From: a virus | Strand: one strand, 5' to 3' | DNA length: 64,000 nt | Virus record (IMG/VR): IMGVR_UViG_3300045988_105796 | Shown here: in pieces, positions 3,024 through 61,623 of the stretch | Layout of the letters: the number at the start of each line of letters is the position of its first letter | Position numbering within the stretch: the first letter of the stretch is position 1 | Program-made: the position numbers and the translations under genes | Notes under the pieces: generated by a model | What the model saw: only the letters and a program-made list of their open reading frames with translations | What the model was told of the DNA's origin: nothing | The model's database searches: none

Positions 3024-3027
3024 AACT

Positions 3028-3747
3028 TTAATATTGTTTCTTATCCATTATTCGATCTATCTTATCTTGAGTAATATCATCAGGATTATACTCTAGATTA
3101 GTAGCTTGTATAACATCTGGATCATAATGAAGATATACGCTATATAGTACATTATCAAAGGGTAATGTTAATTTCATTGTACCATTTAGTACAAATGTTT
3201 CAACAGTTACCTGTTTATTTAGATAATCTACTCTTTTAACGGTAGCTTCTACTCCTTCATAAGGATATCCTTTAAGATGTATGTAATCTCCAGGTTTAAG
3301 ATTTACTAAATCATCTAAAGAATATTTCTTATTCTCATTAGCTATCTTTATAAATCTTCTTACTTCAGATCTATCTACCATAGCTATTAAAGAAAAATCA
3401 TCCCAGTCTTCGGCATTATCTATCCTAACTCTCTTTTTCCTATTATGTAGAGTTTCAGTATCTCTAAGCCATGAGTGAATACCAGGTATCTTTTTCCTTA
3501 GCTTATTCATAAAAGTTCTAGAATAAGCCAATTCTCGGGGTATTCTTATAAAACCATAGTTAAACAGAACAGGTTCTTCAGTAAAGATCATCTTACCTTT
3601 TATGGTTTTTCGTAGAATGTTAACGGTAGGTATGATAGCTTTTATTCTTTTATAATGATATTTCTTTAATTGATCATTGGTACCTTTCCATGATTTCTTT
3701 TCCAAGTAGAAAAGACAATAAACGTATTTAGTAGGATCTCTTTCCAT
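3028..3747 (-). CDS. NusG/UpxY-like transcription antitermination protein (NGN + KOW)
   Basis: NGN-like YVYCLFYLEKK...EEPVLFNYGFIRIP. KOW-like KPGDYIHLKGYPYEGVEATVKRVDYLNKQVTVETFVLNGTMKLTLPFDNV. Confidence 0.65.
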   Translation of the reverse strand: MERDPTKYVYCLFYLEKKSWKGTNDQLKKYHYKRIKAIIPTVNILRKTIKGKMIFTEEPVLFNYGFIRIPRELAYSRTFMNKLRKKIPGIHSWLRDTETLHNRKKRVRIDNAEDWDDFSLIAMVDRSEVRRFIKIANENKKYSLDDLVNLKPGDYIHLKGYPYEGVEATVKRVDYLNKQVTVETFVLNGTMKLTLPFDNVLYSVYLHYDPDVIQATNLEYNPDDITQDKIDRIMDKKQY

Positions 3748-3761
3748 ATAGATAGTAATAT

Positions 3762-4289
3762 TTATCGATTCTTAACTATAGTTTTAGCTAACTTATGTAC
3801 TCTTTTATAGGATACTTTGTTTAGAACAGCACTAGCCATGAAGATATACAGGTTTAGCTCATTACCTATATTAAAAACCATATACCTGGTATCCTTTACA
3901 AAAGGTATAAATTCTTTAGCTAAATCCTCTCCTACTGCCATGAAGAATTCATTAGAAGGCATTGAATTATATCTCATTATCAAAATAGGTACTTTTGCAG
4001 ACCTAAGAGCATCATTAGTAGCCTGATTCCAGAATTTCTCTACTTCACTACCTTTAGTACCTAATAAGATATGCTCAAATTTAATATCCTTATAACACTT
4101 ACATTCTACAGATATTTTACACCGGTGAGCATGACGTTCATCGGTGCACATAACATCTGAAGCTAGATCACGACTTTGGTGATTTGCTCCACTATAAGGA
4201 GTTCTACCAAACTTATAACCCGTCCAGTCACTCATCCATTTAGCAACTGTTCTCTCAAATTTATTACCTTTTCTCTTAGAGTTAACCAT
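3762..4289 (-). CDS. Holliday-junction resolvase-like PD-(D/E)XK nuclease
   Basis: N-terminal KRKGNKFERTVAKW (the RKG..fE signature of Hjc/phage resolvases), then D...E.K-like ISVECKCYKD. Confidence 0.5.
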   Translation of the reverse strand: MVNSKRKGNKFERTVAKWMSDWTGYKFGRTPYSGANHQSRDLASDVMCTDERHAHRCKISVECKCYKDIKFEHILLGTKGSEVEKFWNQATNDALRSAKVPILIMRYNSMPSNEFFMAVGEDLAKEFIPFVKDTRYMVFNIGNELNLYIFMASAVLNKVSYKRVHKLAKTIVKNR

Positions 4290-6029: not shown

Positions 6030-7015
6030 TGTTCTTCGGATTTATTTAAGATGTTAATTAAAAGATTTTCTCGATTCTTATCTTTTATACCAGTAGTCCT
6101 CATATAACGTTTAGCTAGACGCTTTTTAGATAACTGCTTAGTAATTTTATGTTCTACTATTTTTTCTACTCTAGATTGTTTCGGAATAACTGTATAGTAG
6201 TTACCATCATCCTTTATTTCTTCTTCTGATTCTACATCAATGAACTTAGGGAAGTTATCTAAAGGTATAAATTTTAATGATAAGTCTTCATATAACTCCC
6301 AGTAACCCATTTCACAATTTTTATCAGTTCTACGCTGTTGTAAGGGAGCTCCTATCATATATACCTTTTTAGCCAATCTTTGGTGTTTATGTATATGACC
6401 ACATAATACTAGATCGAACTTATTTAGAGTATTTATATTAATATTCTCTACAGAATCTATACGTCTACCATCTGTATCAGTAGCACCTGGATAATCAGTA
6501 TGTAATAATAGGATATTTTTACTATTCTTATCCAACTTCAATTTAGAGATATATTCACATAAACCTACGTTATGATCTATGTAGGGTATACCATGTACCG
6601 TAATATCTAAACCTATATCTATAGATTCTTTATTTAATATCTTAAATCCCCATTCTGAAGGACCAAATCCTTCAAAACAGTCTAGAATAGATTTAGTTAA
6701 ATTATCTATCTTATTTACCGAAGGCAGTTCATGATTACCACTTATGGCATAACATCTAAATCGAGGGTATTTAGAATAACATTCTCTTTGCCATTGAATA
6801 AATCTTATAAGTAGTGAAGTATCTAATACGTTAGGTTTATGAAACATATCTCCACAAAATAAAGCAGGTACTCCTAACTCACTACATTTTTCAGCTATTA
6901 ATGAGAGAACCTTGAAACCGTTCTCAGTTCTCTCATTATTTTCGTTAAACTTTGCCCATTGATTTAGATGTAAATCTGAAAAGGCTAAAGCTATTACTTT
7001 CTTAGATTTTGTCAT
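6026..7015 (-). CDS. sbcD: SbcD/Mre11-like nuclease (T4 gp47 analogue)
   Basis: Calcineurin-like phosphoesterase motifs FSDLHL, GDMFHK, SGNHE and GHIHKHQ. 4-nt overlap with the SbcC-like gene. Confidence 0.85.
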   Translation of the reverse strand: MTKSKKVIALAFSDLHLNQWAKFNENNERTENGFKVLSLIAEKCSELGVPALFCGDMFHKPNVLDTSLLIRFIQWQRECYSKYPRFRCYAISGNHELPSVNKIDNLTKSILDCFEGFGPSEWGFKILNKESIDIGLDITVHGIPYIDHNVGLCEYISKLKLDKNSKNILLLHTDYPGATDTDGRRIDSVENININTLNKFDLVLCGHIHKHQRLAKKVYMIGAPLQQRRTDKNCEMGYWELYEDLSLKFIPLDNFPKFIDVESEEEIKDDGNYYTVIPKQSRVEKIVEHKITKQLSKKRLAKRYMRTTGIKDKNRENLLINILNKSEEQ

Positions 7016-7694
7016 ATATGAAATTTATTATATATTCTGATCTAATATCTAATTTCGGTTCTTTAACTACCATGATTCTAGTTTCTCCATGTATAGTATC
7101 AAGTTTCCATATCTCTACTCCTTCTTTAGATTGAGTACCAGGTCTATACCAATGATTGTTGACTAAATGTACTTCTCTAATAAATTGAGCCTTCCAATAT
7201 TTGATCACTGCTTTCATTATAGAAGATATTTCACACTGGAAAAATCCATTTGTGATCCTCTTTTCATTATCTTCTACTATCCAGTTACCTATAAGCTCTG
7301 GAGTAAAATCTAACAGTATGAGATGTGAACAATATTGATTGGTAAACATTTTACATAAATCCATAAAATGTTTTACTTCACATTCTGGGATTTTATCTGC
7401 TTGCTTATACATAAAATAAGAAGCTACATCCAAGAAGCTACGATCACTGATAAAAGATTCTTCATTTTGGAAGAGCTTCTTCCTCAAGTTTAATACCTGA
7501 AAATCCTCCATGTACAAAGTCTTAGGATCTTTAGATAACATCTCCTGATGAGTTTGTTCTTTTGTCTTTGGTAATAAATCAGATACAGAACCTGATATAA
7601 AGTTTATATCTGCTACATTACCTATCTTTTCAGCTAAAGTAGTCTTACCTATACCTGAAGGACCTGCAAACATTATTTTATTCTTTCTTTCCAT
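7002..7694 (-). CDS. P-loop deoxynucleoside/deoxynucleotide kinase-like protein
   Basis: Walker A FAGPSGIGKTTLAEKI. dNK-like SDRSFLDVASYF motif (the DRS..sd..vF pattern). Confidence 0.55.
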   Translation of the reverse strand: MERKNKIMFAGPSGIGKTTLAEKIGNVADINFISGSVSDLLPKTKEQTHQEMLSKDPKTLYMEDFQVLNLRKKLFQNEESFISDRSFLDVASYFMYKQADKIPECEVKHFMDLCKMFTNQYCSHLILLDFTPELIGNWIVEDNEKRITNGFFQCEISSIMKAVIKYWKAQFIREVHLVNNHWYRPGTQSKEGVEIWKLDTIHGETRIMVVKEPKLDIRSEYIINFIYDKI

Positions 7695-8631
7695 AAGTTC
7701 TTTCTATTTGTTTATTGAAGTTATCTATAAATAGTTTTGAATAGAAGGATCCTAAACTATATTCGTTAACTACTCTTTCTAAAGCTTTTACCTTGATTTT
7801 ACCCTCCTTAGGAATTCTCATAGGTAAAGTCTTTATAGGATGATGATTTATAAACCATCTCAAGTCTATCATCTTTTTATTCCTATCATATACTTCTTTC
7901 ATCTTCTTATGACCTTCATCTCCTTTAAGATAAGTGTCAGATTCTAAGTAGTTTTCAATACAAGTATAATCATCTAAGAATTTTCTTGCCTTCTTTTCTC
8001 CAATACCTGGATAACCTGGGATATCATCAGATTTATCACCTACTAAGCAAAGCCAATCAACACATTCACTTGCAGAATAACCATTAATTACTTTGCAATT
8101 AGAATCATATATTAGTTGATCTTTACGCACATTAAAAATCATCGTAGTTTGCTTTACAAGCAATTGATTAAAATCTTTATCTGCAGTAATTAATATTCTT
8201 CTAGATTTCTTAGGAGCCCACTTGATAGCTAGATGAGCAAGGAAGTCATCTCCTTCATAATTATATTCCTTCTTCTTATCGTATACATATTTAATACATA
8301 AGATCCTTAATAACTTCTGTATTACCTTCTTTTGACTATGTAAAGATTCATAATCCATAGATATGTTCTTTCTATGAGCCTTATAAGTAGGTATGATCTC
8401 AGTACGATATTTTGAATGACCGTTATCAAATACTATTACTACATCATCCGGTCTAAACCTATACAAGTATGTCTGTAAAGACTTAAAGAATCCGAAGATT
8501 GCTCCACTTGGTTTACCATCTACTGATTTGAAATTCATGAACTTATGGTAAGATTGATGGAGAAGTCCCTCTCCATCAACCAATACTATAGTTTTACGAT
8601 TAAGATTGCGCGTCTTCTTCTTCATAGTCAT
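7678..8631 (-). CDS. 5'-3' exonuclease / flap endonuclease (T4 RNase H-like)
   Basis: PIN-like N-terminus IVLVDGEGLLHQSYH, then ITADKDFNQL, and H3TH GDKSDDIPGYPGIGEKKARKFL. Confidence 0.85.
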   Translation of the reverse strand: MTMKKKTRNLNRKTIVLVDGEGLLHQSYHKFMNFKSVDGKPSGAIFGFFKSLQTYLYRFRPDDVVIVFDNGHSKYRTEIIPTYKAHRKNISMDYESLHSQKKVIQKLLRILCIKYVYDKKKEYNYEGDDFLAHLAIKWAPKKSRRILITADKDFNQLLVKQTTMIFNVRKDQLIYDSNCKVINGYSASECVDWLCLVGDKSDDIPGYPGIGEKKARKFLDDYTCIENYLESDTYLKGDEGHKKMKEVYDRNKKMIDLRWFINHHPIKTLPMRIPKEGKIKVKALERVVNEYSLGSFYSKLFIDNFNKQIERTYGKKE

Positions 8632-9004
8632 GTATCATTTCTTCTAACAACTCTATACTGTAGTAATAATTCCTTTTAATAATAGAAGGAACCAAATACC
8701 ATAATTGAGTACAGTTAAACTGATTAATATACTCTTCTAATACCTTACGATTTTCTTCAAGATCTAATTCGGCATAAAGATCTTCAGAAGCTAACCCTCT
8801 ATCAATTGACAAGTGACATACTGAGATAGCTTTTTTCAAATCCTCTAAACCATTCTTATTATTATATCTTGAAGAGTATTTTAGTATCTCTCCTTGGAAC
8901 CAGTCCATTTTGAAGATTACCATTAAATCTACTGGCTCTATCTTCAATCTAGAGTAATGGGTACCAGCTACCTGTCTTTTTTTATTCGTCATCATCTTCT
9001 TCAT
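8600..9004 (-). CDS. DUF3310-like phage protein
   Basis: GTHYSRLKIEPVDLMVIFKMDWFQGEILKYSSRY...GLEDLKKAISVCHL resembles the DUF3310 pattern. By-eye match only. Confidence 0.35.
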   Translation of the reverse strand: MKKMMTNKKRQVAGTHYSRLKIEPVDLMVIFKMDWFQGEILKYSSRYNNKNGLEDLKKAISVCHLSIDRGLASEDLYAELDLEENRKVLEEYINQFNCTQLWYLVPSIIKRNYYYSIELLEEMIHDYEEEDAQS

Positions 9005-10109
9005 AATCTCCTGATATATTTTCTACTGGATATAAGTTTTTATCTATACTTTCTAGTAACTTTTTAGTAGTTCCTAAAGTGTTTATACCTTCTTTTCTTA
9101 TTAACTTTCTACGAAGATCATCATTGTCTTCTAATAAAGCCTTAAACTTCTCTGCTCCTCTACATAAAGTTTTACCCTTATAAGTAAATGTACCTGAGTG
9201 AGATTTCTCTACTATACCATCTTCTACTAGAAGTTCATCTAAGAAATGTAAACGATCAAAACCTACTTCATCTACATATTTAGGATTATTATATAAAGGA
9301 GAAGCCTTTAATGTAGGTCCAGGAGGAGCAACTTTATTTTTAATGGTTCTTATTGAAGTTACTCTACCTATCTTCCTTTCTTTACCTTTTACTTTTTTAG
9401 TAATCTGTTTACCTCCATATAAACCTATTCTCAATGAAGCATAGAATCTTAAAGCTTGTCCTCCTGGAGTAGTATCAGGATTTTCAAACATACCTGCTTT
9501 TAGATTCTTTCTTAACTGATTGATGTAAATCTGGGTTATTCCTAAAGAATATAACATTTCATTACGTATACGGAAGAATTTATATATTGCCTTAGCTCTG
9601 TTACCCATATCAGCAGAAGCATTATCCATTTCTGAATCTATATTAGCGTCTGTATCTAAAGCTGATACTGAATCTAATATTAATAGGATTGGCTCATTGT
9701 GAGTTAACTGAGATCTCCAATATAAAGATTGAGCAGCTATCCAGTCAGAAATTTTTTCTATAGAAGTATTTCTATATACTACGATTTTAGATAAATCTAA
9801 GCCGTTAGATTCTGCCCATGAATTAGTAAATACTTGTTCAGCGTCTACCCATAAAACTACTCCACCAAGATATTGAGCACAATATGCAAAATCATAAGCC
9901 ATTAGAGTTTTACCTGAGGATTCTTCTCCAAATAGTTCCATAATTTTACCGTAAGGAATTCCTCCTCCAGTAATCTTATTAAAAGCTAAAAATCTTGAAG
10001 GTAACCAAGGTGATTTAGACTCATCTACCTCTGCTGGTACATATTGACCTGCGAATTTCTTTTGTAATTCTCTTAAAGAAGGTATCTTTATTTTCTTTCT
10101 ACCTGCCAT
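8982..10109 (-). CDS. recA: RecA-like recombinase
   Basis: Walker A ELFGEESSGKTLMAY (RecA GPESSGKTT), Walker B ILLILDSVSALD, and the L2-like region NQLRKNLKAGMFENPDTTPGGQALRFYASLR. Confidence 0.85.
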   Translation of the reverse strand: MAGRKKIKIPSLRELQKKFAGQYVPAEVDESKSPWLPSRFLAFNKITGGGIPYGKIMELFGEESSGKTLMAYDFAYCAQYLGGVVLWVDAEQVFTNSWAESNGLDLSKIVVYRNTSIEKISDWIAAQSLYWRSQLTHNEPILLILDSVSALDTDANIDSEMDNASADMGNRAKAIYKFFRIRNEMLYSLGITQIYINQLRKNLKAGMFENPDTTPGGQALRFYASLRIGLYGGKQITKKVKGKERKIGRVTSIRTIKNKVAPPGPTLKASPLYNNPKYVDEVGFDRLHFLDELLVEDGIVEKSHSGTFTYKGKTLCRGAEKFKALLEDNDDLRRKLIRKEGINTLGTTKKLLESIDKNLYPVENISGDYEEDDDE

Positions 10110-10121
10110 AGTGTATTATCT

Positions 10122-10170
10122 ATAAACAAAATAGGGAAACAGCTACCGATTAAAATAACTATCTCCCTAT
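10122..10170 (-). terminator. Intrinsic terminator between the SSB and RecA genes
   Basis: The minus strand reads ATAGGGAGATAG-loop-CTGTTTCCCTAT (12-bp stem including two G-U pairs) followed by TTTGTTTAT. Confidence 0.5.
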
Positions 10171-10195
10171 CAATTAAACATTATAAACTAACTCA

Positions 10196-10966
10196 TTAAA
10201 TATCGCCATGGCGATTCTTCTTCTTTTTCTTATCCTTTGATGACTTCTTTTTCTTCTTTGGAGTATCATCATCGTCGTCATCGTCATCTGGAGTATTATT
10301 TAAGAACTTATTAAGTTCTTCTTCAATCTCATCGTAAGATTTAACCTGAGATTTTACCATACCCATTAAATCTACTGGCTCAAGAAGTTTCTTATCTACC
10401 TTAGTAGGTTTACAATTACGAACTGAGTATGATGTATCAAATCTACCTGAACCTGAACGATCTATCTTAATATCATAACCATTCTTAGGATCTGTCATAT
10501 CTCCAGCCTCATCCTCATCAAGGTAAAGTTCAATAATATCCTGGTATACAGAAGAAGGAATCATAACCAATCTTGGTTTACTGTCGTAATCTAATTCCTT
10601 ACCCTTTTCATCCTTATATACCAAGCCAGCAATTACATACCTACGTGAAGGAACAAATTTCTTTGCTAACTTCTTATCATCTTCATCCTTTGAATCTTTT
10701 AACTCCTTGTATTTATCCATAACTGGACAAGGTTCATCAAATGAAGCTGGAGAAATGATTGAATGATCTCCGAGGTAGAATCGGATAACTTCTATTCCAA
10801 GTTCCTCATTAGGACCTGCACTTACGATTCTTACTCGTGTAGTACCATTACCTGGGAATACAAAACCATTTCCTGATCCCTTTTCAGCTAGTTTCTTTTT
10901 TCTAGCTAACATCTTCTCTCTAGTAGTTTGACCAGAAGAAGACAACTTCTTTTTTTCTTTTTTCAT
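10196..10966 (-). CDS. T4 gp32-like single-stranded DNA-binding protein
   Basis: GTTRVRIVSAG, CPVMDKY, YVIAGLVY and GYDIKIDRSGSGRFDTSYSV occur in the gp32 order. Acidic tail DDDDDDDD followed by a Lys run. Confidence 0.55.
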   Translation of the reverse strand: MKKEKKKLSSSGQTTREKMLARKKKLAEKGSGNGFVFPGNGTTRVRIVSAGPNEELGIEVIRFYLGDHSIISPASFDEPCPVMDKYKELKDSKDEDDKKLAKKFVPSRRYVIAGLVYKDEKGKELDYDSKPRLVMIPSSVYQDIIELYLDEDEAGDMTDPKNGYDIKIDRSGSGRFDTSYSVRNCKPTKVDKKLLEPVDLMGMVKSQVKSYDEIEEELNKFLNNTPDDDDDDDDTPKKKKKSSKDKKKKKNRHGDI

Positions 10967-10967
10967 C

Positions 10968-11357
10968 TTACTTATTTGGATTGTTTTCTGTAAATAATAC
11001 TTCGTTTAATGATAAGATAGTAAACTTATATTCTCCAATTTCTCCTACAAGGTTTGGATCAAAGCTAACCTCTTTACCAGCGTATTTACCATAAGTAACT
11101 ACCTTACCTACTTTGATAAGATCATAGTAAGTCTTATACTCTTCAGTTATTTCTCCAATAGAGATAATAACTCCTTTATTAGGTATGGTATCTTCTCCAC
11201 GAGAAGCTGGTAAGATTATACCACCACTAACTGTTTCTTGATTATTAGGGCTTAGGATAAGTACCCTATTTTCTGTTAATCTTCCTCCAATACTATGTAT
11301 CTTATCGGAAAGTTTGAAAGCTTCTGTTTCACTTGTAAATTTTAATGGAATGTACAT
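10968..11357 (-). CDS. groES: GroES-like co-chaperonin (Cpn10 fold)
   Basis: TVSGGIILPASRGEDTIPNKGVIISIGE...VGKVVTYGKYAGKEV...EYKFTILSLNEVL is colinear with GroES (mobile loop GGI.LP). About 35 aa N-terminal extension. Confidence 0.7.
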   Translation of the reverse strand: MYIPLKFTSETEAFKLSDKIHSIGGRLTENRVLILSPNNQETVSGGIILPASRGEDTIPNKGVIISIGEITEEYKTYYDLIKVGKVVTYGKYAGKEVSFDPNLVGEIGEYKFTILSLNEVLFTENNPNK

Positions 11358-11362
11358 GTTGT

Positions 11363-11374
11363 TTTTAATGTTTA
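11363..11374 (-). promoter_or_regulatory. Recurrent leader motif TAAACATTAAAA (copy upstream of the GroES-like gene)
   Basis: The minus strand reads GTTAAACATTAAAAACAAC-ATG. The same 12-mer occurs upstream of 47314 and 49746, with a variant upstream of 43291. Confidence 0.3.
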
Positions 11375-11414
11375 ACGTTGTTATTTTTAACCTTGTATAT
11401 TCAAATAGTAAAGG

Positions 11415-11831
11415 CTATTGCTTTCTTAGATTTGCAGATAAAGTCCTGATCACATTCTCTCTACTTTCATAAGCTTTACATAGAGAAATGAATTGAGCAG
11501 CTTTTTCTGCCATTTTTAAGTAAGCATTAAACCTAGATATATACTTATGATTAGTATTTGCCTTGTTAGATACATAATCATTATTCCACTGAGGATTAGC
11601 ATTCTTATAAAAGTTCCATGCTTCACTATAGGCTACATCCTTTTCTTTTGCTAGTTCTTCTCTTCTACGTATATATTTATCACGAATATTGCATAGAATA
11701 AAATAACTAGAAGGTATATCTCTTAATTGAGAATCTAACCTATTTTTATCTATAGATAATTCCTTTTGAATATCTATGATAATTTCTTTACCTTGATATT
11801 TAACCTTTACAGGTTTTATATTGATATCCAT
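11415..11831 (-). CDS. Hypothetical protein
   Basis: ORF track; tightly packed in the replication module. No family recognised. Confidence 0.5.
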   Translation of the reverse strand: MDINIKPVKVKYQGKEIIIDIQKELSIDKNRLDSQLRDIPSSYFILCNIRDKYIRRREELAKEKDVAYSEAWNFYKNANPQWNNDYVSNKANTNHKYISRFNAYLKMAEKAAQFISLCKAYESRENVIRTLSANLRKQ

Positions 11832-12389: not shown

Positions 12390-12596
12390 TTATAAAGATA
12401 TAGTTTCTGATCTTTTTCCCTTTATACATTTCATACTATTCTCATGAGGTAGTAAGTTTTTACAACTGGGACAAGGTATATACCTATGTAAAAAATCCCT
12501 CATAAAGTAAGTATCTTCAAGCTGATACTCAAAATTCTTATCGCAGTAAGGACAAATCATAATATATTTATCCAAGCTTCTTGTAATATGCTTCAT
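12390..12596 (-). CDS. Small zinc-ribbon protein
   Basis: Two CxxC pairs (CPYC ... CPSC). Its start overlaps the 3' end of the polymerase gene by 29 nt. Confidence 0.45.
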   Translation of the reverse strand: MKHITRSLDKYIMICPYCDKNFEYQLEDTYFMRDFLHRYIPCPSCKNLLPHENSMKCIKGKRSETISL

Positions 12597-14838
12597 ATTC
12601 TTTGAATTGTTTCTTAAATACTTTAGGGAAATCCTTGATAGATATATTTTTATATTTCATATATTGCTTATGAAAATCCTCCTCATTGTATTCTCCATTC
12701 AATAGCTTATTATAATCATATAAAGGTACAAAAGGTAACTCTTCTGCCATTGTTCTACCTATTTCAAAATCCATTGACATGTCTACGTCATTGATTTGAA
12801 AACCAAAATATTCTTTAGTTTTAGGGTTTCTAAATATATTCCACATGTGATATACTGTGTATATATTTATATCATTTGGCTTAGTGTTAAAATAGTTAGC
12901 GTCATGTACCAAGCATACTGAATCCATCTGAGGGAATTTCCTCTGTCTCATTGACCAATATAATAATATAGATCCAAATAAACACATGTCAGAAGCAGCT
13001 GATTGACAAGGAGCGTTTACAGATAATCTTATAGCATAAGCTACTTCAGATCTATCTTCTGAAAATACTTGGGGCAATCTTCTTTTTCTTCCAAATAAAC
13101 TAGATATATAACCTTGTTTTTTAAGAACCTTCTCCTGATGTTTCATGAATTTCTTTATCTTAGGATGTTCCTCAAAAAATTCATTTAATTGTTGTTGAGC
13201 TTCATCGGGTGTTACTATTAAACCTGCCTTAGGATCAGATAACTTTTCTGATAAAAGTTTAGCTTGTATACCATAGATAATACCGAAAGCAATTTGCTTA
13301 GCCTGTTTACGTCTAGTGCTCCATATTTTATGTTCTGGATTATTCTCATCATCTTTTGCTGCAAGAGCTACTTCATAGGGTACTCCGTATTTCTTTGCTG
13401 CAATAGCTAAGTGAGGATCTTGATTTTCTGCAAAAGCTTTAAGATAAGTTTCATCTCCAGATAAGTGAGCCATGATTCTTAACTCTGCCTGTGAAAAGTC
13501 CATTGCAAAGTATAAAGTACCAGGGTTAGCTACCAACTGTTTCTTAATATTAGGGTCTACAGAAGTTTTAGGTATTTGCTGCATATTAGGTTCTGAAGAT
13601 GAAAGTCTACCACTAGTAGTTCCAATGATATTGAATTTACCATGTAGCTTAGAATCATCCTGTACCTTTTCATTCCAACCTTCTATGTAGGTCTTATACA
13701 TTTTCTCCAATCCTCTCAACTCTAACAAAGTATCAAGGAAGATTGCTTTTGGAGACTTAGGATCTTTTACAGTTAATCTTAATTCTACTAAAGCATCCTC
13801 TGCTGTAGATCTACCTCCATTATCTGTATACTGAGTACATTCGAAATTAAATCCATCATATATCAAAGCTGGTAAGTCTCTATTACTGTTTAGATTTAGA
13901 GGATTGATTAAAGCTTTCTCAGTTTTAGTAGTAAATACTCCTGCTAATATGTTTTCTATTTTCTTTTCTCTACTAGCAATTTTTCTTTCACTACCAGGTA
14001 TTTCTTCTAATTGAGATATTTCATCTCTTAGTTTTTCTAAATAGGTATCTATTCTTTTCTGAATATATTTTTTAGTAAACTTCTTAACCCTTGGTAAATT
14101 ATATATTACCTCATAAGCATTATTTATCTTAGGTTTATAAGTTTCTAATAATTCCTGATTGAAAGCTCTATCCAGATATAAACCATTCTTCTCTACAGTT
14201 TGTAATACCCTACTAGCAGGCATTATCATATTACGGAAAAGATTATACATATCCTTTTCTATAATCATTCTTTCGAAGAATATAGATAATCTGAAAGTAT
14301 AATCGGTATCTTGACAACCATATTGACATAGAGGTTCTAATGGTTTTTGATCCCAAGGTATCTTATCAAAACCCTTTTCACTTTCATAGTTAGCAGCCCA
14401 TGGTAAATATCTTTTTACCATATCTTTCAAACCATTTGGACGTTCTTCATTAAGAACATATTTAGCAAGCATACCATCTATCAAAGTACCTCTTAGATAT
14501 ATACCATATTTTTCAAATATCTGTAAATCGAATTTAGCATTCCAAGCAATTTTAACGATATTCTTATTTTCAATTACTTCATGACCAAATCTTTTTAGAG
14601 CCTTTAACCAATTCCATGTTCTATCAGTGTATTTCTTAGTTTCAAAATGATGTAAAGGTATTGAACATCCAAAACCTGGCATACAAGTTACTGATAATAT
14701 GGTAGGCTTGAAATCCTTCTTATATATACCTTCTGCATTAGTCTCAAAGTCAATACAAGCATATCTAGTAGACTTACATAATTCTATAAGCCTATCTAAG
14801 TCTTTATATGATTTGATTATTTTATATTTAGTTCTCAT
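12568..14838 (-). CDS. polA: Family-A DNA polymerase with 3'-5' exonuclease domain
   Basis: Exo I CIDFETN. Motif A YFAMDFSQAELRIMAH. Motif B RRKQAKQIAFGIIYG. Motif C VCLVHDA. Confidence 0.9.
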   Translation of the reverse strand: MRTKYKIIKSYKDLDRLIELCKSTRYACIDFETNAEGIYKKDFKPTILSVTCMPGFGCSIPLHHFETKKYTDRTWNWLKALKRFGHEVIENKNIVKIAWNAKFDLQIFEKYGIYLRGTLIDGMLAKYVLNEERPNGLKDMVKRYLPWAANYESEKGFDKIPWDQKPLEPLCQYGCQDTDYTFRLSIFFERMIIEKDMYNLFRNMIMPASRVLQTVEKNGLYLDRAFNQELLETYKPKINNAYEVIYNLPRVKKFTKKYIQKRIDTYLEKLRDEISQLEEIPGSERKIASREKKIENILAGVFTTKTEKALINPLNLNSNRDLPALIYDGFNFECTQYTDNGGRSTAEDALVELRLTVKDPKSPKAIFLDTLLELRGLEKMYKTYIEGWNEKVQDDSKLHGKFNIIGTTSGRLSSSEPNMQQIPKTSVDPNIKKQLVANPGTLYFAMDFSQAELRIMAHLSGDETYLKAFAENQDPHLAIAAKKYGVPYEVALAAKDDENNPEHKIWSTRRKQAKQIAFGIIYGIQAKLLSEKLSDPKAGLIVTPDEAQQQLNEFFEEHPKIKKFMKHQEKVLKKQGYISSLFGRKRRLPQVFSEDRSEVAYAIRLSVNAPCQSAASDMCLFGSILLYWSMRQRKFPQMDSVCLVHDANYFNTKPNDINIYTVYHMWNIFRNPKTKEYFGFQINDVDMSMDFEIGRTMAEELPFVPLYDYNKLLNGEYNEEDFHKQYMKYKNISIKDFPKVFKKQFKEYEAYYKKLG

Positions 14839-14933: not shown

Positions 14934-15683
14934 TTATACCTTATCCTTCATAAGATCATCTATAGATGATTTTAATAAAGGCCAGTCTTTCTTGTAACAA
15001 TGAAGAGAATCTATAGTATGAATGAGCATACCTGGTTTAACTCCTACCTTCTCTGCTACATATTCCATCATACACCATGCAAGATATACATCATCTCCAA
15101 AATGTTGAACAAAATCTGAACTTCTCTGATGATAAGTAAGATTTAATCTTCCTTCTCTAACAAAGAAACCATAATATACTGAACAAGGGATTCTCTTATT
15201 ACCTTCATAATAATTACAATCATTTCCAGTAAATATAGGGAGAACTGCTTTACGAGTATCTGGATCTGTTTTTAGCAATTCAATAACTGCTTCAAGAGCT
15301 GTAAGATTTTCTCCTCTGTATTTTACAAATCTATTGATACGATCTGCATAAGTATAATCGAATTTACCTTGTTTATCCAAGAATTGTTCCCACATATCTT
15401 TTCTTTCAAGATAAGCAGTTCCAGGATTAACTGGATGACCACTGATTCTCTCTTTGAATTCCATCTCTGCCCATTTCTTAGCATGAGTGAAAACAAATAG
15501 GTATTCTACATCAGGTAGATTTGTAATACAGTACTGTTTACAAAATTCTTCCTTAGTAATAAAATCTTCATTACCCTCGATCACTTTGTTCTGATAGGTT
15601 TTAGGTTTAACCTCTGTACCCATTTCCCAAAGATCTCTGCTCATCTCTGACATGAGCTCTCTTGCATTACTATAAATACGCAT
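14934..15683 (-). CDS. Thymidylate-synthase (ThyA) family enzyme with Asp at the Asn177-equivalent position: dCMP hydroxymethylase/methylase-like
   Basis: LLKTDPDTRKAV...IPCSVYYGFFVREGRLNLTYHQRSSDFVQHFGDDV aligns without gaps to E. coli ThyA LKNDPDSRRII...[35 protein letters not shown]. Cys146, Arg166, Ser167 and Asp169 are kept; Asn177 is replaced by Asp. Confidence 0.7.
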   Translation of the reverse strand: MRIYSNARELMSEMSRDLWEMGTEVKPKTYQNKVIEGNEDFITKEEFCKQYCITNLPDVEYLFVFTHAKKWAEMEFKERISGHPVNPGTAYLERKDMWEQFLDKQGKFDYTYADRINRFVKYRGENLTALEAVIELLKTDPDTRKAVLPIFTGNDCNYYEGNKRIPCSVYYGFFVREGRLNLTYHQRSSDFVQHFGDDVYLAWCMMEYVAEKVGVKPGMLIHTIDSLHCYKKDWPLLKSSIDDLMKDKV

Positions 15684-15720
15684 GTTTATTAATATTTAAT
15701 TGTTATATTCTTTTATAGAA

Positions 15721-16653
15721 TTAGCCTTTTCTATGTAGCTTAGCTAAATACTTCTTCTTATATTTCTTTCTCTGAGAATAAGTTATACAATTCTCTGGAT
15801 ATTCAATATCGTCATTTTCTATAACCAAATCTTTAGCTAGTAAAGGCTTATACTCAAATAAATCTGGACGCATTACCTTGAAACTTCTTAGGAATACCTT
15901 ATAAGTAGAGAATTCCTTCTCAGTACCTTTCATGAACTTATCATATACTTCTTTTATTCGGGTATACCATTCAGTGGTTTTATCCATCTTCTTAGTAACC
16001 TTCTTAAAAGATTTATGACCTCCACAGTACATAAGTAATGTTTCTATATTACCATACATCTGAGTAGCAAATATGTTGATCTGTACTCTCTGATCTTTAC
16101 CATAAACATATTCTGCCATTCTTTGTATTAGCAAGAGATCAAACATCAATCTCTTAGTAATCTCAGAAGCTCTCAGTACCATAGTAATAACTGGTATATC
16201 TTCTGAAAATCTCTTACTAAAGGTAGCAGCTAATAAGCATTGCTTACCATTATTATGTTTATTGTGGAAGAGGAATGATACATTGTAGTTTTGATTATAT
16301 CCTACAGTCTTCATCTTTATCTGAGACTTCAATAGATCTAACTGATTAAAGTCTAAGTAATTGTTTAAGAGTACGGTCCATTTTGATTGTGTGTAATTAA
16401 AATGGCGACCAAAATCGAAACTAGGATCAACCCAAGCATTTCTAATTTTAATGAATATGTTATATACTACTGCTACACCTGCATTAGCCACAGCTCCCTT
16501 GTTAAAGAGCTGTGGATCTAATGTTATAAAACCTTCGTTTAACTTCTCCCATGCTTCAGTAGAGGTAGCAAACTCTAAATCATGTACATGTTCAGAAGCA
16601 TCAAAGGTCATGTTCTCAAATTTTTTATTCCATCCTCCCATATTAATAACCAC
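15721..16653 (-). CDS. Hypothetical protein, possibly a second divergent ThyA-fold paralogue
   Basis: GKQCLLAATFSKRFSEDIPVITMVLRASEITKRLMFDLLLIQRMAEYV is colinear with the ThyA PCH...[13 protein letters not shown] core if a 2-aa insertion is allowed. It again gives Phe-Asp at positions 176-177. By-eye match only. Confidence 0.35.
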   Translation of the reverse strand: MVINMGGWNKKFENMTFDASEHVHDLEFATSTEAWEKLNEGFITLDPQLFNKGAVANAGVAVVYNIFIKIRNAWVDPSFDFGRHFNYTQSKWTVLLNNYLDFNQLDLLKSQIKMKTVGYNQNYNVSFLFHNKHNNGKQCLLAATFSKRFSEDIPVITMVLRASEITKRLMFDLLLIQRMAEYVYGKDQRVQINIFATQMYGNIETLLMYCGGHKSFKKVTKKMDKTTEWYTRIKEVYDKFMKGTEKEFSTYKVFLRSFKVMRPDLFEYKPLLAKDLVIENDDIEYPENCITYSQRKKYKKKYLAKLHRKG

Positions 16654-17536
16654 TATTTTGACGGAAATGATTTACTCTGTTTTTCTTAAAACATAGAGTA
16701 TACAAAGTCTTAGGAATAAATCCCATTGTATAGAGATAACCCAGGTACTTAATTAATCCCAATGCTAATTGTTCACTATATCTAGTGATATCTGTTAATT
16801 CCTGTGACTGTTTCCAAGGTTTATTCTTTAAGAAGTTTCTAGATATATTAATATGGTATGCTACTCCCCACAACATATGATCTTCGCAACGATGAAAATC
16901 TTTATTGCTAAATCTAAAAGCAGGTATATATGAATTTACATGATCTACATCTAAGCCCATATCTTCAATATTAGCTTCGCTTAGAAGATTATATCGGTAG
17001 TCCATATCTTCTAATTCTTCTTCTTTACCTTCAAGATCAAACATATAACTACCTAATAACATTAGATCAAGCATATTCTCAACTTTATCTCTGTTAATTC
17101 TAGCTACTAAATCCTTTAATTTAGCATTAGCATAGTTATAAATATCTTTAATCTCAAGATTAGCATACATCAACAAAGCCATATAAAAAGCCATAGCATC
17201 TGCCTGCTCTTCATTGGAATTCTGAAGATTATTAGCTACCATTTGCCATTCAGAATCACTAAAGGTTTGGTTATTAAAACCATGATCTTGATACATATCA
17301 ATAACTGCAGAAGTAGATTCATAACCCTCTGCTGTTTCCTCAATTACTCTTGCAGAAAAATCCTTTAGTACCTGTTGACCTTTGAAAGTATTAATATCAA
17401 TAGGAGGTAGTGGTAGATCTTTTTCGATCTTACCACAATATCCTTGCAATAGTTCAGCCTCTAGATTATATATAGCTTCTAAATAAGCTTCCTTTTCTAC
17501 TACTGTAGGTATTTCTCTAATATTTCTAATATCCAT
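16643..17536 (-). CDS. All-alpha NTP pyrophosphohydrolase (MazG / dimeric dUTPase-dCTPase-like)
   Basis: LKDFSARVIEETAEGYES and NSNEEQADAMAFYMALLMYANLE fit the paired E..E / E..D metal-binding helices of MazG-like enzymes. Confidence 0.5.
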   Translation of the reverse strand: MDIRNIREIPTVVEKEAYLEAIYNLEAELLQGYCGKIEKDLPLPPIDINTFKGQQVLKDFSARVIEETAEGYESTSAVIDMYQDHGFNNQTFSDSEWQMVANNLQNSNEEQADAMAFYMALLMYANLEIKDIYNYANAKLKDLVARINRDKVENMLDLMLLGSYMFDLEGKEEELEDMDYRYNLLSEANIEDMGLDVDHVNSYIPAFRFSNKDFHRCEDHMLWGVAYHINISRNFLKNKPWKQSQELTDITRYSEQLALGLIKYLGYLYTMGFIPKTLYTLCFKKNRVNHFRQNSGY

Positions 17537-17539
17537 AGT

Positions 17540-18121
17540 TTAATCTCCCTCTATATCGCTTGGATGAGTTGGTTCATATGTTCTACCTCCTTTATCACCA
17601 GAGCCAAATCCATTAGTACCTCTAGTTCCCCAATTCTTTGATTCCTTTTCATAGGTATCATTATCTATCTCTTCTGGATTTGTAAGATAGATAGGAGTAT
17701 GAATCATCTGTACCAAAGGTTCTCCAGCATTTATAGTTACTACTTGAGATGAGGTATTATAAACTGCCAAGTTATATTCACCTACATAAGGAGAATCACA
17801 AATCTGAGCAGTAAAGATCAAACCTAATTTAGTAGATTTGCCAGATTTATTAGCTACCATCATCATTGAATCTTTTGGCTCTAATAAACCCCTAATACCT
17901 GAAGGAATCTTAATCCTTGACTGTGGTTTAAGGTGAATCATAGTAACCTTTCCACCTTTTATACTAATGTTGAAAGCAGAAGGATCTGGATTTGCTTCAA
18001 ACAAGTCTCCAATAGTTAAATCAGTTGGTACATAGAAGTCTAAACCAGCATCTCCTTCATTGTGACGAGTTGGTGATTTAACCTCTCTTACTTTTGTAAA
18101 TCTAAATTTTGTTGTTGACAT
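17540..18121 (-). CDS. dut: Trimeric dUTPase
   Basis: Motif 1 DAGLDFYVP. Motif 3 QICDSPYVGEYNLAVYN. Motif 5 GTRGTNGFGSGDKG. Confidence 0.85.
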   Translation of the reverse strand: MSTTKFRFTKVREVKSPTRHNEGDAGLDFYVPTDLTIGDLFEANPDPSAFNISIKGGKVTMIHLKPQSRIKIPSGIRGLLEPKDSMMMVANKSGKSTKLGLIFTAQICDSPYVGEYNLAVYNTSSQVVTINAGEPLVQMIHTPIYLTNPEEIDNDTYEKESKNWGTRGTNGFGSGDKGGRTYEPTHPSDIEGD

Positions 18122-18389
18122 AATAATATATTATTTGATGTAAAACGTCTCCATAGGTAAGTTCATCTATCTCTTTATATGTAATAGGTATAAAATCTTC
18201 AGTACCTACGATTTCTTCTAGTTTCTTATTTATATTTTTAATAAAACTACTAACGTCAGTTTTCTTCATAAATACTTTGATAAGTATATCAGATTGCTGA
18301 ACCATGTAGTTTGGATTATTCAAATACCTACAGAATAGATACCAGATATATGGTATCATTTCCTTTATTAGTCCTTCTTGTTTATTCAT
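18102..18389 (-). CDS. Hypothetical protein
   Basis: ORF track; overlaps both neighbouring genes by a few codons. Confidence 0.5.
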   Translation of the reverse strand: MNKQEGLIKEMIPYIWYLFCRYLNNPNYMVQQSDILIKVFMKKTDVSSFIKNINKKLEEIVGTEDFIPITYKEIDELTYGDVLHQIIYYYVNNKI

Positions 18390-18760
18390 TTCATTTCTTT
18401 ATAAATTTTCCTGATAGTTTTAGTAGGTACTTCATATTTAGCAGAAGTCTTCTCTACTATTTTCTTCCTATCAAAACCTTTTCTCTTTAATCCCCTAATA
18501 TATTTCTTAATTGCCTTAACATCTTCGAGGATTTCAAGATCCTTATAATTATTCTCTTCTTCTAATTGTTTACGAGTTTTACCTAATGTCTGAGACATCT
18601 TCAAACAACATAACTCAGAATCTCCACACATCCTACACTCTTTAGTAGTAAGATTATAACCTTTACCAAAGCAAGGATCTTTATCAGTACCGATCTTTGA
18701 TAAATCAAATGGTTCCAGGGGATCATGTTTAAGTAAATCTACTCCTTTACTCTTTTTCAT
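18386..18760 (-). CDS. Hypothetical Cys-cluster protein with basic C-terminus
   Basis: DPCFGKGYNLTTKECRMCGDSELCC, then a Lys/Arg-rich helical tail. No family recognised. Confidence 0.5.
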   Translation of the reverse strand: MKKSKGVDLLKHDPLEPFDLSKIGTDKDPCFGKGYNLTTKECRMCGDSELCCLKMSQTLGKTRKQLEEENNYKDLEILEDVKAIKKYIRGLKRKGFDRKKIVEKTSAKYEVPTKTIRKIYKEMK

Positions 18761-19337
18761 TTTTTATACTTTTAATTCCTTTATTGCAAATAGTTCTTGT
18801 TAAATACTTCTTTCTATCCTCTTGATAGCCTTCTGTATTTGTATATCCACAACATTTCATCTCAGGACAAAACCCTCTATATAAACAGGAAGGTACACAA
18901 TAACGAGCAAGTATAGGCTCTATTTTAGATAGCTCATCTATAACCATATTCCAAGCTAATCTAGTTACTTTATCAGCTCGATTACATAATCTTACCTTAG
19001 ATATGTTAATAAGTTCTTGAGCATTCATATAGAGTATCATATTAACAGGATCTGTTTGTTTTCGTGTAGATCTATCAACTCCAGTTATATCTCCTCTTGA
19101 GGTTGATACAAAAGGCTGAGCATGTACATGTCTTACTAAGTGACCCATGTTACAATAAGGGATATCCTTTATAGTTATCTCAAAATTTAATAACCTCAAA
19201 GGAGAGTGTTCAGCTACTATCATATCTTCCTTAAAATTCTTGGAAGGTTCTTTCATTAAAGGGGCAAGGTTCTGAGTGAACCTTGCTGCATTCAGTACAT
19301 CATTCCAAGATGTTTTACGTATTACGTTTACTTGCAT
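18747..19337 (-). CDS. ThyX-like (flavin-dependent thymidylate synthase family) protein, short and divergent
   Basis: AEHSPLRLLNFEITIKDIPYCNMGHLVRHVHAQPFVSTSRGD matches the ThyX pattern HgSplE...f.i.g.sr....ql.RHR..S....S.RY, but with RHVH in place of RHR. Later NAQELINISKVRLCNRADKVTRLAW matches the n.R.l.hf...R....AQ.EIR pattern. Confidence 0.5.
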   Translation of the reverse strand: MQVNVIRKTSWNDVLNAARFTQNLAPLMKEPSKNFKEDMIVAEHSPLRLLNFEITIKDIPYCNMGHLVRHVHAQPFVSTSRGDITGVDRSTRKQTDPVNMILYMNAQELINISKVRLCNRADKVTRLAWNMVIDELSKIEPILARYCVPSCLYRGFCPEMKCCGYTNTEGYQEDRKKYLTRTICNKGIKSIKNEKE

Positions 19338-57017: not shown

Positions 57018-57108
57018 GAATAAGGATTAAATTTATAGGTACATTTTTAACCTATAACCTTATTCATCCTTCGGATGAAAGTAACTACCTCGTAAACTCG
57101 GTAGTTAC
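57018..57108 (-). terminator. Three consecutive hairpins directly after (and overlapping) the methyltransferase stop codon
   Basis: Hairpin 1: GAATAAGG..TTATAGGT-loop-ACCTATAACCTTATTC (57018-57065). Hairpin 2: CATCC-TTC-GGATG (57065-57077). Hairpin 3: GTAACTACC-10 nt-GGTAGTTAC (57081-57108). Confidence 0.45.
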
Positions 57109-58109
57109 GATAGTAGACATTTCTTAAACCATTTACCTACTTGATATACAGATCCTTTAGCTATGGTATATCTTGCTTTATTCAACCAGTATAGATAATT
57201 ATCTTTATCCATGTAGATCTTATATTCATCTGGGAAACCCATGATATTTTTGAAATCCTTTATACCAAGAGGATAACCATCAGGTCTAAACTGTCTATCT
57301 GCAGGCCTTAAAGTCAATGGAGGTTTATCATACTCTAATCTATATACTCCAGGTAGAGTAGACATCTTAGCTGTCTTAATAGGCCATTTCTTTTCATCCT
57401 TGAAATCAGTTCTCCAAAGTTTCTTAATCTGTTTAACGGTAAGATTTTTCTTTTCAGGTAAAGCCCTATAATCATACATCGCTAATATTTTATTTAACGG
57501 CGGCATATAATTATCATTATTTTCCTTAAAATAGGGACATTCTAGTAATTTTCTAGAGCTTACAGGAGTGTCTACTCTAAATATATTGTCGAACTTATTT
57601 AAGTAACTCTTAGACTTAATTTTAATTCCTACAATAATTAACCTTTTCCTTGATACTTGTGAATTACCAAAATCTACTACAGAACGTTGATGATAAATTA
57701 ATTTATAACCGGGTACCTGTATTTCAAAAAATTCCTTTGGCAATAGAGTTACTAATCTTGGTAAATTCTCTAATAAGAAAACCTTAGGTCGGTATTTATT
57801 AATGGCCTGAATAACTAAATTCAAGGATTTATTCTCTTCTGGCTTACCTAATTGTTTAACTTTAGATAACCTCATTATAGAAGAAGCTCCACAATCTGGA
57901 CTTGATATAATTACATCAGCCTTAATATCTGGTAGTTCATTTCTCAAAAAAGGTATATCTCCAAAGTTCAACTTCCACTGTTCTTCATTCTTGGTATGAA
58001 ATACGGCTCTAGGTTCTATATTAGCAACTAAATTCTCTTTAAACGGAAACAGCAGGGCTCCTTGCCCTGCTGATACTCCTAAAACCCTTAAATGCTTCAT
58101 CGTAGACAA
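57105..58109 (-). CDS. DNA (cytosine-5)-methyltransferase-like protein with an atypical catalytic motif
   Basis: Motif I-like VLGVSAGQGALLFPF. Motif IV-like ISSPDCGASS (P-D-C instead of P-C). Motif VI LLENLPRLV. Motif VIII FGNSQVSRKRLIIVG. Confidence 0.6.
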   Translation of the reverse strand: MSTMKHLRVLGVSAGQGALLFPFKENLVANIEPRAVFHTKNEEQWKLNFGDIPFLRNELPDIKADVIISSPDCGASSIMRLSKVKQLGKPEENKSLNLVIQAINKYRPKVFLLENLPRLVTLLPKEFFEIQVPGYKLIYHQRSVVDFGNSQVSRKRLIIVGIKIKSKSYLNKFDNIFRVDTPVSSRKLLECPYFKENNDNYMPPLNKILAMYDYRALPEKKNLTVKQIKKLWRTDFKDEKKWPIKTAKMSTLPGVYRLEYDKPPLTLRPADRQFRPDGYPLGIKDFKNIMGFPDEYKIYMDKDNYLYWLNKARYTIAKGSVYQVGKWFKKCLLS

Positions 58110-59482: not shown

Positions 59483-59512
59483 CAAATAAAATATTTATCA
59501 AACATTATTTAT

Positions 59513-60105: not shown

Positions 60106-60110
60106 AGATT

Positions 60111-60422: not shown

Positions 60423-60433
60423 AATTAAGTAGT

Positions 60434-61541: not shown

Positions 61542-61623
61542 GTTTTCAAGGAAGCCCTTAATACGAAGGCCTAAAATTTCCAGGCAGTAAAAACGGGGCA
61601 CGGTTAGTTGCAAATGTTAAAAA

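Follow-up and report, generated by a model that had tools for sequence, protein, structure and literature searches.

A cluster of genes for pyrimidine-nucleotide enzymes was found on the minus strand between positions 14,934 and 19,337 of IMG/VR virus record IMGVR_UViG_3300045988_105796, which was analysed as one stretch of 64,000 nucleotides (hereafter, the window). An initial annotation had interpreted five open reading frames (ORFs) of this cluster, together with a sixth at 7002-7694, as a probable pathway for replacing a base of the viral DNA; all six were present at their coordinates, and all of them on the minus strand. The genes on which the argument rests are listed below, with the evidence for each one in brackets.

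7002..7694 (-): P-loop NTPase, candidate (d)NMP kinase (sub-threshold similarities; fixed position in relatives)
12568..14838 (-): family A DNA polymerase (PolA), presumed to use the modified deoxynucleoside triphosphate (dNTP) and placed directly after the module on its downstream side (conserved adjacency)
14934..15683 (-): ThyA-family enzyme, predicted to modify C5 of dCMP (Pfam and PHROG matches, alignments, NCBIfam scores)
15721..16653 (-), probable ATG start at 16641: ORF2, a divergent ThyA-fold protein of an uncharacterised family (AlphaFold2, Foldseek, hhalign, conservation)
16643..17536 (-): all-alpha NTP pyrophosphatase of the dimeric-dUTPase/MazG/T4 gp56 type, with an insertion of about 100 residues (Pfam, PHROG, hhalign, alignment)
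17540..18121 (-): trimeric dUTPase, divergent (Pfam, PHROG, motifs, NCBIfam)
18102..18389 (-): conserved ORF of 95 amino acids (orf95), between orf124 and the dUTPase gene (67 of 87 related loci; no family match)
18386..18760 (-): conserved Cys-rich ORF of 124 amino acids (orf124; CFGK...CRMCGDSELC), at the upstream edge of the module (77 of 87 related loci)
18747..19337 (-): minimal ThyX-fold protein, accessory (Pfam Thy1, AlphaFold2 with Foldseek, locus counts)
57105..58100 (-): DNA C5-cytosine methylase-like gene (motif IV SPDCG, atypical, versus PCQ; motif VI ENL)

For ORF2, the ATG at 16641 is probably the start rather than the GTG at 16653, because its homologues are 303-306 amino acids long.

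Recurrence of the gene module

When 50,697 phage records were searched with the cluster by megablast, no nucleotide-level match was obtained. By protein similarity, its closest relatives were uncultivated phages from human faeces, such as DP SC_6_H4_2017 (MT121964.1), and hundreds of related contigs of 78-87 kb were present in IMG/VR. To count gene occurrence, 80 related IMG/VR loci, gathered through a closer alignment, and seven others were compared, 87 in all. The ORF2 and ThyA-like genes co-occur in every one of them (87 of 87), accompanied by PolA in 83, the pyrophosphatase in 81, the trimeric dUTPase in 79, the candidate kinase in 51, its place in the related loci being fixed at some 6 kb downstream, and the ThyX-like gene in only 8. 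The helicase gene comes first and is followed by a variable region, in which ThyX may or may not be present, and then by orf124, orf95, dUTPase, pyrophosphatase, ORF2, ThyA-like and PolA. This clustering is not due to chance, as 80 related viral contigs share the same order and it recurs in phage lineages that are unrelated.

Among cultured phages, the order found was kinase, pyrophosphatase, ORF2-like gene, a short thymidylate synthase (TS) homologue with Asp at position 177 of the Escherichia coli numbering (Asp177 TS), an optional deaminase, and PolA. The module was detected in Pseudomonas phage PMBT14, Yersinia phage P744 and the CPAS-15 group of C. perfringens phages, in a Manatee Spring phage, where ThyX is present as well, in Gordonia phage Emalyn and 67 other Gordonia phage records, and in the Mycobacterium phages Muddy and FF47 and phages of Streptomyces and Microbacterium; Serratia phage Serbin is also among the cultured carriers of the ORF2 family. 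These distant ORF2 members lie between the MazG or dUTPase gene and the short Asp177 TS (35091-35879 in PMBT14, 3036-3953 in Emalyn, 2979-3872 in FF47, gp47 in Muddy), and a deaminase gene adjoins the module in PMBT14, Emalyn, FF47 and P744. A hidden Markov model of the ORF2 family detected the ORF2-like genes of all the cultured groups, with E values from 1e-40 to 3e-7, and gave no match in the 50 of 63.8 kb of phage Xp12 that were searched, TS neighbourhood included.

Distant metagenomic members kept the trio of pyrophosphatase, ORF2-like and TS genes, to which a dCMP deaminase, a second TS with Asn177 or a fusion of uracil-DNA glycosylase (UDG) with PolA were added. A phage contig of 47 kb showed two short TS homologues (6454-7098 and 9054-9731), one with Asn177 and the other with Asp177, flanking a pyrophosphatase and an ORF2-like gene, and it also carried a dCMP deaminase and a UDG-PolA fusion. 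In DP SC_6_H4_2017, genes for an IspD-like cytidylyltransferase (10154-10909) and a LicD-family phosphotransferase (10902-11774) were found between the ThyA-like gene and PolA. This pair, absent from the other 86 loci examined, may serve for a CDP-alcohol-based hypermodification of a hydroxymethyl base.

Two ThyA-fold proteins with cytosine-type residues

The product of 14934-15683 had been assigned to the ThyA family, and matches to Pfam Thymidylat_synt (PF00303; E=1e-20, 74.5 bits versus a cut-off of 24.3) and to PHROG thymidylate synthase (E=4.7e-30) bear this out. An orthodox dTMP synthase was nevertheless rejected on two grounds: the protein scored under every NCBIfam thymidylate-synthase cut-off (at best 64 bits versus 174.55, the others 29-56 versus 108-427), and Asp occupies the position of E. 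coli Asn177 across its subfamily. dTMP synthases carry Asn at this position, and the exchange N177D classically turns uracil specificity into cytosine specificity. The residues were read from an alignment that included 27 relatives together with the homologues of the C. perfringens phage and DP SC_6_H4_2017, as well as T4 gp42 and E. coli ThyA; the key motifs of the E. coli sequence were consistent with the HMMER alignments. The Asp at position 177 (Asp198 here, D179 in T4 gp42) was present in the protein and in all the aligned relatives. Cys167 corresponds to C146 and Asp190 to D169 of the E. coli enzyme, and Arg187 is also present; Arg164 occupies the position of L143, which is Arg in every aligned subfamily member, Ser168 that of H147, which is Ser or Thr in the relatives, and Thr111 that of Val93. 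Residues Glu58, Trp80, Tyr94, Arg126, Cys146, Arg166, Ser167, Asp169, His207 and Tyr209 (E. coli numbering) are kept, and the C-terminal tail is absent, with 19 residues after the HxY motif compared with about 55 in E. coli ThyA. In metaviromes, no two positions are more strongly associated with modified-cytosine contigs than 177 and 147 (PMC8670742). The C-terminal tail, which ThyA requires to transfer hydride, is lacking in T4 dCH as well (PMC6400193).

The best PDB sequence match of this protein was the dCMP hydroxylase AfhB of phage HY126 (9iqu/9iqc, E=2e-11). With the 5-hydroxy-dCMP synthases (HY126 AfhB, RB69 gp48, DLP3 gp80), which are ThyA-fold hydroxylases, the ThyA-like protein shares the Asp177 of cytosine specificity. 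On the other hand, arabinose or UDP-sugar genes are absent, and so is the D169N substitution that marks the flavin-dependent enzymes AfhB and RB69 gp48 (PMC13326640): the equivalent residue is Asp190 for the ThyA-like protein, while ORF2 has Glu160. A flavin hydroxylase of the AfhB type was rejected for 14934-15683, as its Asp169 equivalent is kept. Since Asp169 and Asp177 are both present, D169N is not, and the TS scores stay below their cut-offs, the protein is predicted to be a folate-type enzyme acting on dCMP.

A second ThyA-fold paralogue had been put forward as a possibility in the initial annotation, and for ORF2 it proved to be real, as seen through AlphaFold2 with Foldseek and through profile-profile comparison. 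No sequence match was obtained for ORF2 in Pfam, NCBIfam or PDB. Its AlphaFold2 model (pLDDT 82, pTM 0.83), compared with PDB by Foldseek, gave informative top matches that were all of the ThyA fold, led by the cytosine-specific enzymes MilA, AfhB and T4 dCH. Over PDB and BFVD, the informative matches were all TS, dCH, MilA or AfhB, with a probability of 1.0 and TM scores of only 0.33-0.50; in BFVD, two uncharacterised members of ORF2's own family came first, followed by ThyA-fold proteins. MilA, the CMP hydroxymethylase of the mildiomycin pathway, was the top PDB match (E=1e-5) and has the ThyA fold and Asp at 177, but the TM score was only 0.35-0.39 and the identity to ORF2 9%; MilA itself, whose substrate is a ribonucleotide and which belongs to a bacterial pathway for an antibiotic, shows Asp at 143 together with the usual arginines for phosphate binding.

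For the comparison of profiles, a diverse ORF2 alignment was built from a search of 1.84 billion representative proteins, among which only 165 relatives were found; some clusters of the protein at 90% identity hold thousands of member sequences. With this alignment, hhalign aligned the catalytic core of ORF2 with that of the ThyA-like family at E=2.5e-4 (E=0.033 with shallow alignments only), and paired C135, R157, E160 and D168 of ORF2 with C146, R166, D169 and N177 of ThyA at identical spacing, R to D being 11. None of 73 diverse family members matched any Pfam family, nor PF00303 at E<=0.1, and the best PDB match of the family profile was AfhB, in two collinear segments and without significance. 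Across 73 sequences, down to 17% identity, K87, W88, L91, Y95, C135, R157 and D168 are invariant, and Asn35, Tyr83, Phe125, Glu160 and Arg164 nearly so; a conserved Lys-Arg pair appears to be present elsewhere in the sequence. Judged from these residues and the model, ORF2 looks like a catalytically equipped, cytosine-reading ThyA-fold enzyme. Neither of the two ThyA-like ORFs was placed among orthodox dTMP synthases or in unrelated families by these searches.

Two GenBank records call distant members of the family "pyrimidine hmase synthase", a label that suggests automated annotation by remote homology. Another label, glycosyltransferase, given in the CPAS-15 annotation, was rejected, as no support for it was found. 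Tandem copies of ORF2 occur in DP SC_6_H4_2017 (7000-7989 and 7982-8767), where a 329-amino-acid paralogue matches the ORF2 family by hhalign at E=1e-52, and a probable duplication is also seen in a second contig, L006 (6305-7339 and 7336-8304, the neighbour being of 344 amino acids).

The same residues bear on a simpler explanation, in which these genes would do housekeeping of the dNTP pool, removing dUTP and supplying dTMP for an AT-rich genome made of canonical DNA, with ORF2 as a degenerate, non-catalytic duplicate. dUTPase and TS-like genes beside the polymerase are indeed common in phages, a genome with 32% G+C has a high demand for dTTP, a ThyX-fold gene is present, and many SEA-PHAGES carriers of the module are sequenced and handled routinely, with no report of modification found in the literature searched; nor did this literature give DNA modification data for 9IQU/9IQC, DP SC_6_H4_2017, the C. 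perfringens phages, PMBT14/Knuthellervirus or Muddy. We regard this explanation as improbable. It does not account for the conservation of Asp177 across the subfamily, for scores far under the TS equivalog cut-offs, or for Cys, Arg and Asp of ORF2 being invariant over such a range of identities, unlike a decaying duplicate. Moreover, most relatives are without the ThyX-like gene and hence would have no dUMP-specific TS at all, and no homologue of a dCMP deaminase was found in the window or in the 80 related loci. Homologues of dihydrofolate reductase (DHFR) were likewise not found there. A bypass to dTMP through deamination of 5-methyl-deoxycytidine nucleotides was rejected for this lineage, no deaminase being present.

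In metaviromes, TS homologues with Asp177 whose gene neighbours are PolA and pyrophosphatases of the PRA-PH type have been linked to modified-cytosine DNA (PMC8670742; bioRxiv 10.1101/2024.12.05.627091), and gene neighbourhoods like the present one were reported to be enriched on contigs with modified cytosine. The class of module, which includes those of T4, Xp12 and MetaGPA, is already published, and the new part is the ORF2 family. The published surveys could not see it because they were based on Pfam domains; their module of Asp177 TS, pyrophosphatase and PolA thus holds a conserved ThyA-fold protein invisible to them. New here are the tight tie of the ORF2 family to a tail-less TS subfamily with Arg143 and Asp177, the breadth of its occurrence in cultured phages and the fact that it coexists with a DNA C5-methylase. 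Tentatively, ORF2 could represent the founder of a new catalytic branch of the TS fold, with an undescribed Cys-dependent C5 reaction on a cytosine deoxynucleotide, carried out by itself or within a heterodimer that includes the tail-less Asp177 TS. If so, an undescribed DNA base, or a route to one, would exist in an abundant lineage of gut phages and in many cultured phages, which include easily grown ones and relatives of the therapeutic mycobacteriophage Muddy. The ThyA fold has recently been shown to support flavin-dependent hydroxylation in AfhB and RB69 gp48 (PMC13326640), an unexpected chemistry, and the ORF2 branch may therefore credibly hold new nucleotide chemistry and provide enzymes for tools of epigenetic sequencing.

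A predicted route to modified cytosine

The gene upstream of ORF2 (16643-17536) had been described as a MazG/dimeric-dUTPase-like pyrophosphatase, and this holds, with the protein being of the gp56 type: its family aligned with the C terminus of the T4 gp56 dCTPase (hhalign E=1.3e-5), its profile matched the dimeric dUTPase of C. jejuni (1w2y, E=0.003), and the protein matched PHROG 12184, nucleotide pyrophosphohydrolase, at E=1e-13. The Pfam match, at the C terminus only, was to dUTPase_2 and borderline (21.5 bits versus 22.9). Alignment with shorter homologues showed a complete all-alpha NTP pyrophosphatase plus the insertion of about 100 residues, and motifs EETAEGYE, NEEQADA and KKNRVNHFRQ were read. 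Single-sequence searches of PDB gave nothing useful for this protein, for ORF2 or for the ThyX-like protein. A separate trimeric dUTPase is encoded next door, and from this context we infer a dCTPase. The latter gene (17540-18121), described from the start as a trimeric dUTPase, was confirmed as such by Pfam (PF00692; E=9e-12, 45.3 bits versus a cut-off of 22) and by motifs I, III (ICDSPYVGE), IV and V (RGTNGFGSG), motif II being a variant (NKSG), though it is divergent by its NCBIfam score (54 bits versus a cut-off of 102). A dCTP deaminase was rejected for this gene, given the presence of motif V and a Pfam DCD match of only E=0.0055.

The protein of 7002-7694, for which a dNK-like kinase had been proposed, is a P-loop NTPase with a clear Walker A motif, and its similarity to kinases (PHROG thymidylate kinase, E=4e-8; Pfam dNK, 20.7 bits versus a cut-off of 27) stays below threshold, with PDB matches limited to the P-loop, so that the kinase label is no more than plausible. 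In a related locus, a neighbour gene showed matches to dNK/AAA_28.

We propose, with a rough probability of 0.55, that the genes from 14934 to 18121 make up a pre-replicative module producing a C5-modified deoxycytidine (dC) nucleotide for incorporation by PolA, as suggested by the predicted enzymes and by the published association of such neighbourhoods with modified DNA. In this route, the gp56-like pyrophosphatase would convert dCTP to dCMP while, in parallel, the trimeric dUTPase would remove dUTP, as expected for its family. Cys167 of the ThyA-like enzyme would attack C6 of dCMP, Asp198 would read the cytosine and, with Asp190 retained, the one-carbon unit would come from methylene-tetrahydrofolate; capture of water would then lead to 5-hydroxymethyl-dCMP, which is slightly favoured over 5-methyl-dCMP. 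ORF2, with its tetrad of Cys, Arg, acid and Asp and its constant linkage, may carry out a further Cys-dependent step on the cytosine deoxynucleotide or be an obligate partner subunit. The P-loop kinase, whose role is the more doubtful step, might act with the host NDP kinase to give the triphosphate, and the adjacent PolA would put the modified dC into phage DNA, following a logic like that of T4 gp56/gp42/gp1 and of Xp12.

The resemblance to T4 includes the pyrophosphatase related to gp56, the placement beside the DNA polymerase and, for the ThyA-like enzyme, the catalytic Cys and cytosine-reading Asp of gp42 (C148 and D179 in T4), the conserved Asp171 (= D169) and the lack of a C-terminal tail. 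However, identity to gp42 is only about 20%, Arg replaces the water-activating Asp145, the polymerase is PolA and not PolB, ORF2 is an extra, obligatory gene, the dUTPase is a separate trimeric enzyme, a DNA C5-methylase is present and there is no glucosyltransferase. As in Xp12, PaMx74 and the metavirome modules, an Asp177 TS lies beside a MazG/PRA-PH-type pyrophosphatase and PolA, whereas the lineage of the window has no deaminase, which in the metavirome modules is a 5mC-selective one, and, unlike Xp12, no DHFR.

For the ThyA-like enzyme itself, 5-hydroxymethyl-dCMP is put at not quite even odds as the product, with 5-methyl-dCMP as an only slightly less probable outcome. The hydroxymethyl form is favoured because the protein has no C-terminal lid and carries the polar residues Arg164 and Thr111 at the positions of Leu143 and Val93; in the same direction point the lack of a DHFR gene nearby and the IspD/LicD pair of DP SC_6_H4_2017, which suggests a hydroxyl acceptor. 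The methylase-like gene at 57105-58100 was counted toward the methyl product. In the phage collection, homologues of this gene were found only in DP SC_6_H4_2017 and one faecal contig, and 201 relatives were found in IMG/VR, several of them on contigs carrying ORF2 and with a divergence similar to that of ORF2; on these grounds, the gene belongs to the core of the lineage. Its presence implies partial replacement, or 5-methylcytosine (5mC) as the product with the methylase patching residual C, or another role for the methylase.

Several observations weigh against this proposal or against its hydroxymethyl form. Complete replacement at C5 is hard to reconcile with the co-conserved methylase, because, with a C5 substituent on every C, this enzyme would be left without a substrate. 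The 5-hydroxymethyl call is weak because Arg stands where T4 dCH has its water-activating Asp145. Moreover, the window revealed no transferase, glycosyl- or other, that would act on a hydroxymethyl group. In experiments on seven Asp177 TS homologues taken from similar neighbourhoods, 5-methyl-dCMP (5mdCMP) was the product of five (bioRxiv 10.1101/2024.12.05.627091). In ORF2, Tyr replaces Glu160 in the actinophage branch of the family, and sequence inspection revealed no Arg126'/Arg127' phosphate-binding pair (DxxRR) at the equivalent stretch YNQNYN; to these, the sub-threshold assignment of the kinase has to be added. Of the base-replacement pathway initially proposed, the Asp177 TS, the gp56-type pyrophosphatase and the ThyA-fold ORF2 stand, while the kinase is weak, the ThyX-like gene (below) turned out to be accessory and the methylase counts on the other side.

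Part of this evidence fits a variant in which, as in Xp12 or PaMx74, the ThyA-like enzyme is a dCMP methyltransferase, 5mC replaces C, the DNA C5-methylase tops up and ORF2 is an accessory or partner. Asp177 is present, the homologues that gave 5mdCMP come from PRA-PH, deaminase and PolA neighbourhoods which the distant ORF2 phages share, the methylase would yield the same final base, and no transferase decorating a hydroxyl was found in the window. We consider this variant possible, though clearly less probable, given that the tail required for hydride transfer, kept in ThyA and at length in the Xp12 enzyme, is missing from the ThyA-like protein, that Xp12 has both DHFR and a 5mC/dCMP deaminase beside its TS, neither of which was found in the window or in the 80 related loci, that the searched part of Xp12 has no ORF2 homologue, and that IspD and LicD within the DP SC_6_H4_2017 module suggest a hydroxyl acceptor. 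With this variant added to the 0.55 given above, base replacement in one form or the other is the best-supported reading.

It is also conceivable, though we find it very unlikely, that the modified cytosine nucleotide is not meant for bulk DNA and acts instead as a small-molecule effector, or as a decoy against host defences that deplete or sense nucleotides. Such a role would be compatible with a methylase acting on ordinary C of the phage DNA and with the unassigned chemistry of ORF2, and MilA offers the example of a ThyA-fold cytosine enzyme in secondary metabolism. Against it, the module invariably adjoins the replicative polymerase and dNTP-pool enzymes, such neighbourhoods are associated with modified DNA in published work, and neither export nor tailoring genes were seen, nor an N-glycosidase like MilB.

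Word statistics of the window were examined as circumstantial evidence. TTTAAA, which is free of C, was the only strongly avoided palindrome (4 observed versus 63.5 expected, z=-7.5), CATATG was seen 6 times versus 20.7 expected, and no avoidance was detected among C-containing 4-mer palindromes, with a CpG odds ratio of 0.35. These values fit the protection of C-containing sites, and the host restriction repertoire together with dinucleotide bias would explain them equally well. Should the DNA be modified, a non-canonical cytosine would be present in a lineage of human-gut phages, with genomes of 78-87 kb, that is both abundant and widespread, with effects on the evasion of restriction and CRISPR, on virome library preparation and methylation-aware sequencing, and on host-range prediction.

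The ThyX-like protein and other features of the window

The divergent ThyX-like protein (18747-19337) of the initial annotation does have a ThyX fold, but it does not belong to the core of the module, from which it was rejected after being found in only 8 of the 87 loci. The count of three TS-like genes was consequently overstated: two ThyA-fold proteins stand, and the ThyX-like gene is an accessory one. In Pfam, it showed only a weak match to Thy1 (E=2e-6), and in NCBIfam 19.9 bits versus a cut-off of 87.9. A profile search of PDB with its family gave only spurious matches to HIV gp120, and for this reason the fold was established through AlphaFold2 and Foldseek, with a model (pLDDT 83) that gave 111 PDB matches at E<=0.001, of which all 50 listed were ThyX (TM 0.5-0.58). 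The ThyX motif reads RHVHAQPFVSTSR (RHV...TSR versus RHR...SxR), with Arg, His and the final Arg kept, the third Arg changed to Val and Ser to Thr.

Compared by reading with the T. maritima ThyX sequence, the protein keeps the equivalents of His53, Arg78, His79, Arg90 and Arg174, but it is about 45 residues shorter, Arg80 is Val, Ser88 is Thr and Tyr91 is lost. Its family gave 813 matches, made of short phage proteins of about 185 amino acids with a conserved C-terminal cluster of four cysteines (C147, C151, C157 and C163), not seen in the T. maritima sequence; this cluster may be a metal site. The gene may be a lineage-specific extra that supplies dTMP.

In the rest of the window, a replication block was recognised, with a DnaB-like helicase, primase, second helicase, PolA, SSB, UvsX-like recombinase and SbcCD, as well as a structural block for a contractile tail, including baseplate wedge, tape measure, major head protein, portal and terminase. 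A search for tRNA genes gave none. Within the replication block, a GroES/Cpn10-like co-chaperonin gene lies at 10968-11357 on the minus strand, and it adjoins PolA in contig L006 too. The PolA of some relatives contains inteins with HNH/NUMOD4 endonuclease domains (11895-15173 in L002, the DP SC_6_H4_2017 locus, 4261-7596 in L078 and 1046-3853 in L006), and in one related contig a helicase intein carries a LAGLIDADG domain. As far as about 59 kb, transcription is almost entirely from the minus strand. The sign of the GC skew switches at about 59500-61600, where a short block of plus-strand ORFs (59513-61541) follows a muramidase gene (58693-59289), and this region is probably the boundary between two transcription modules.

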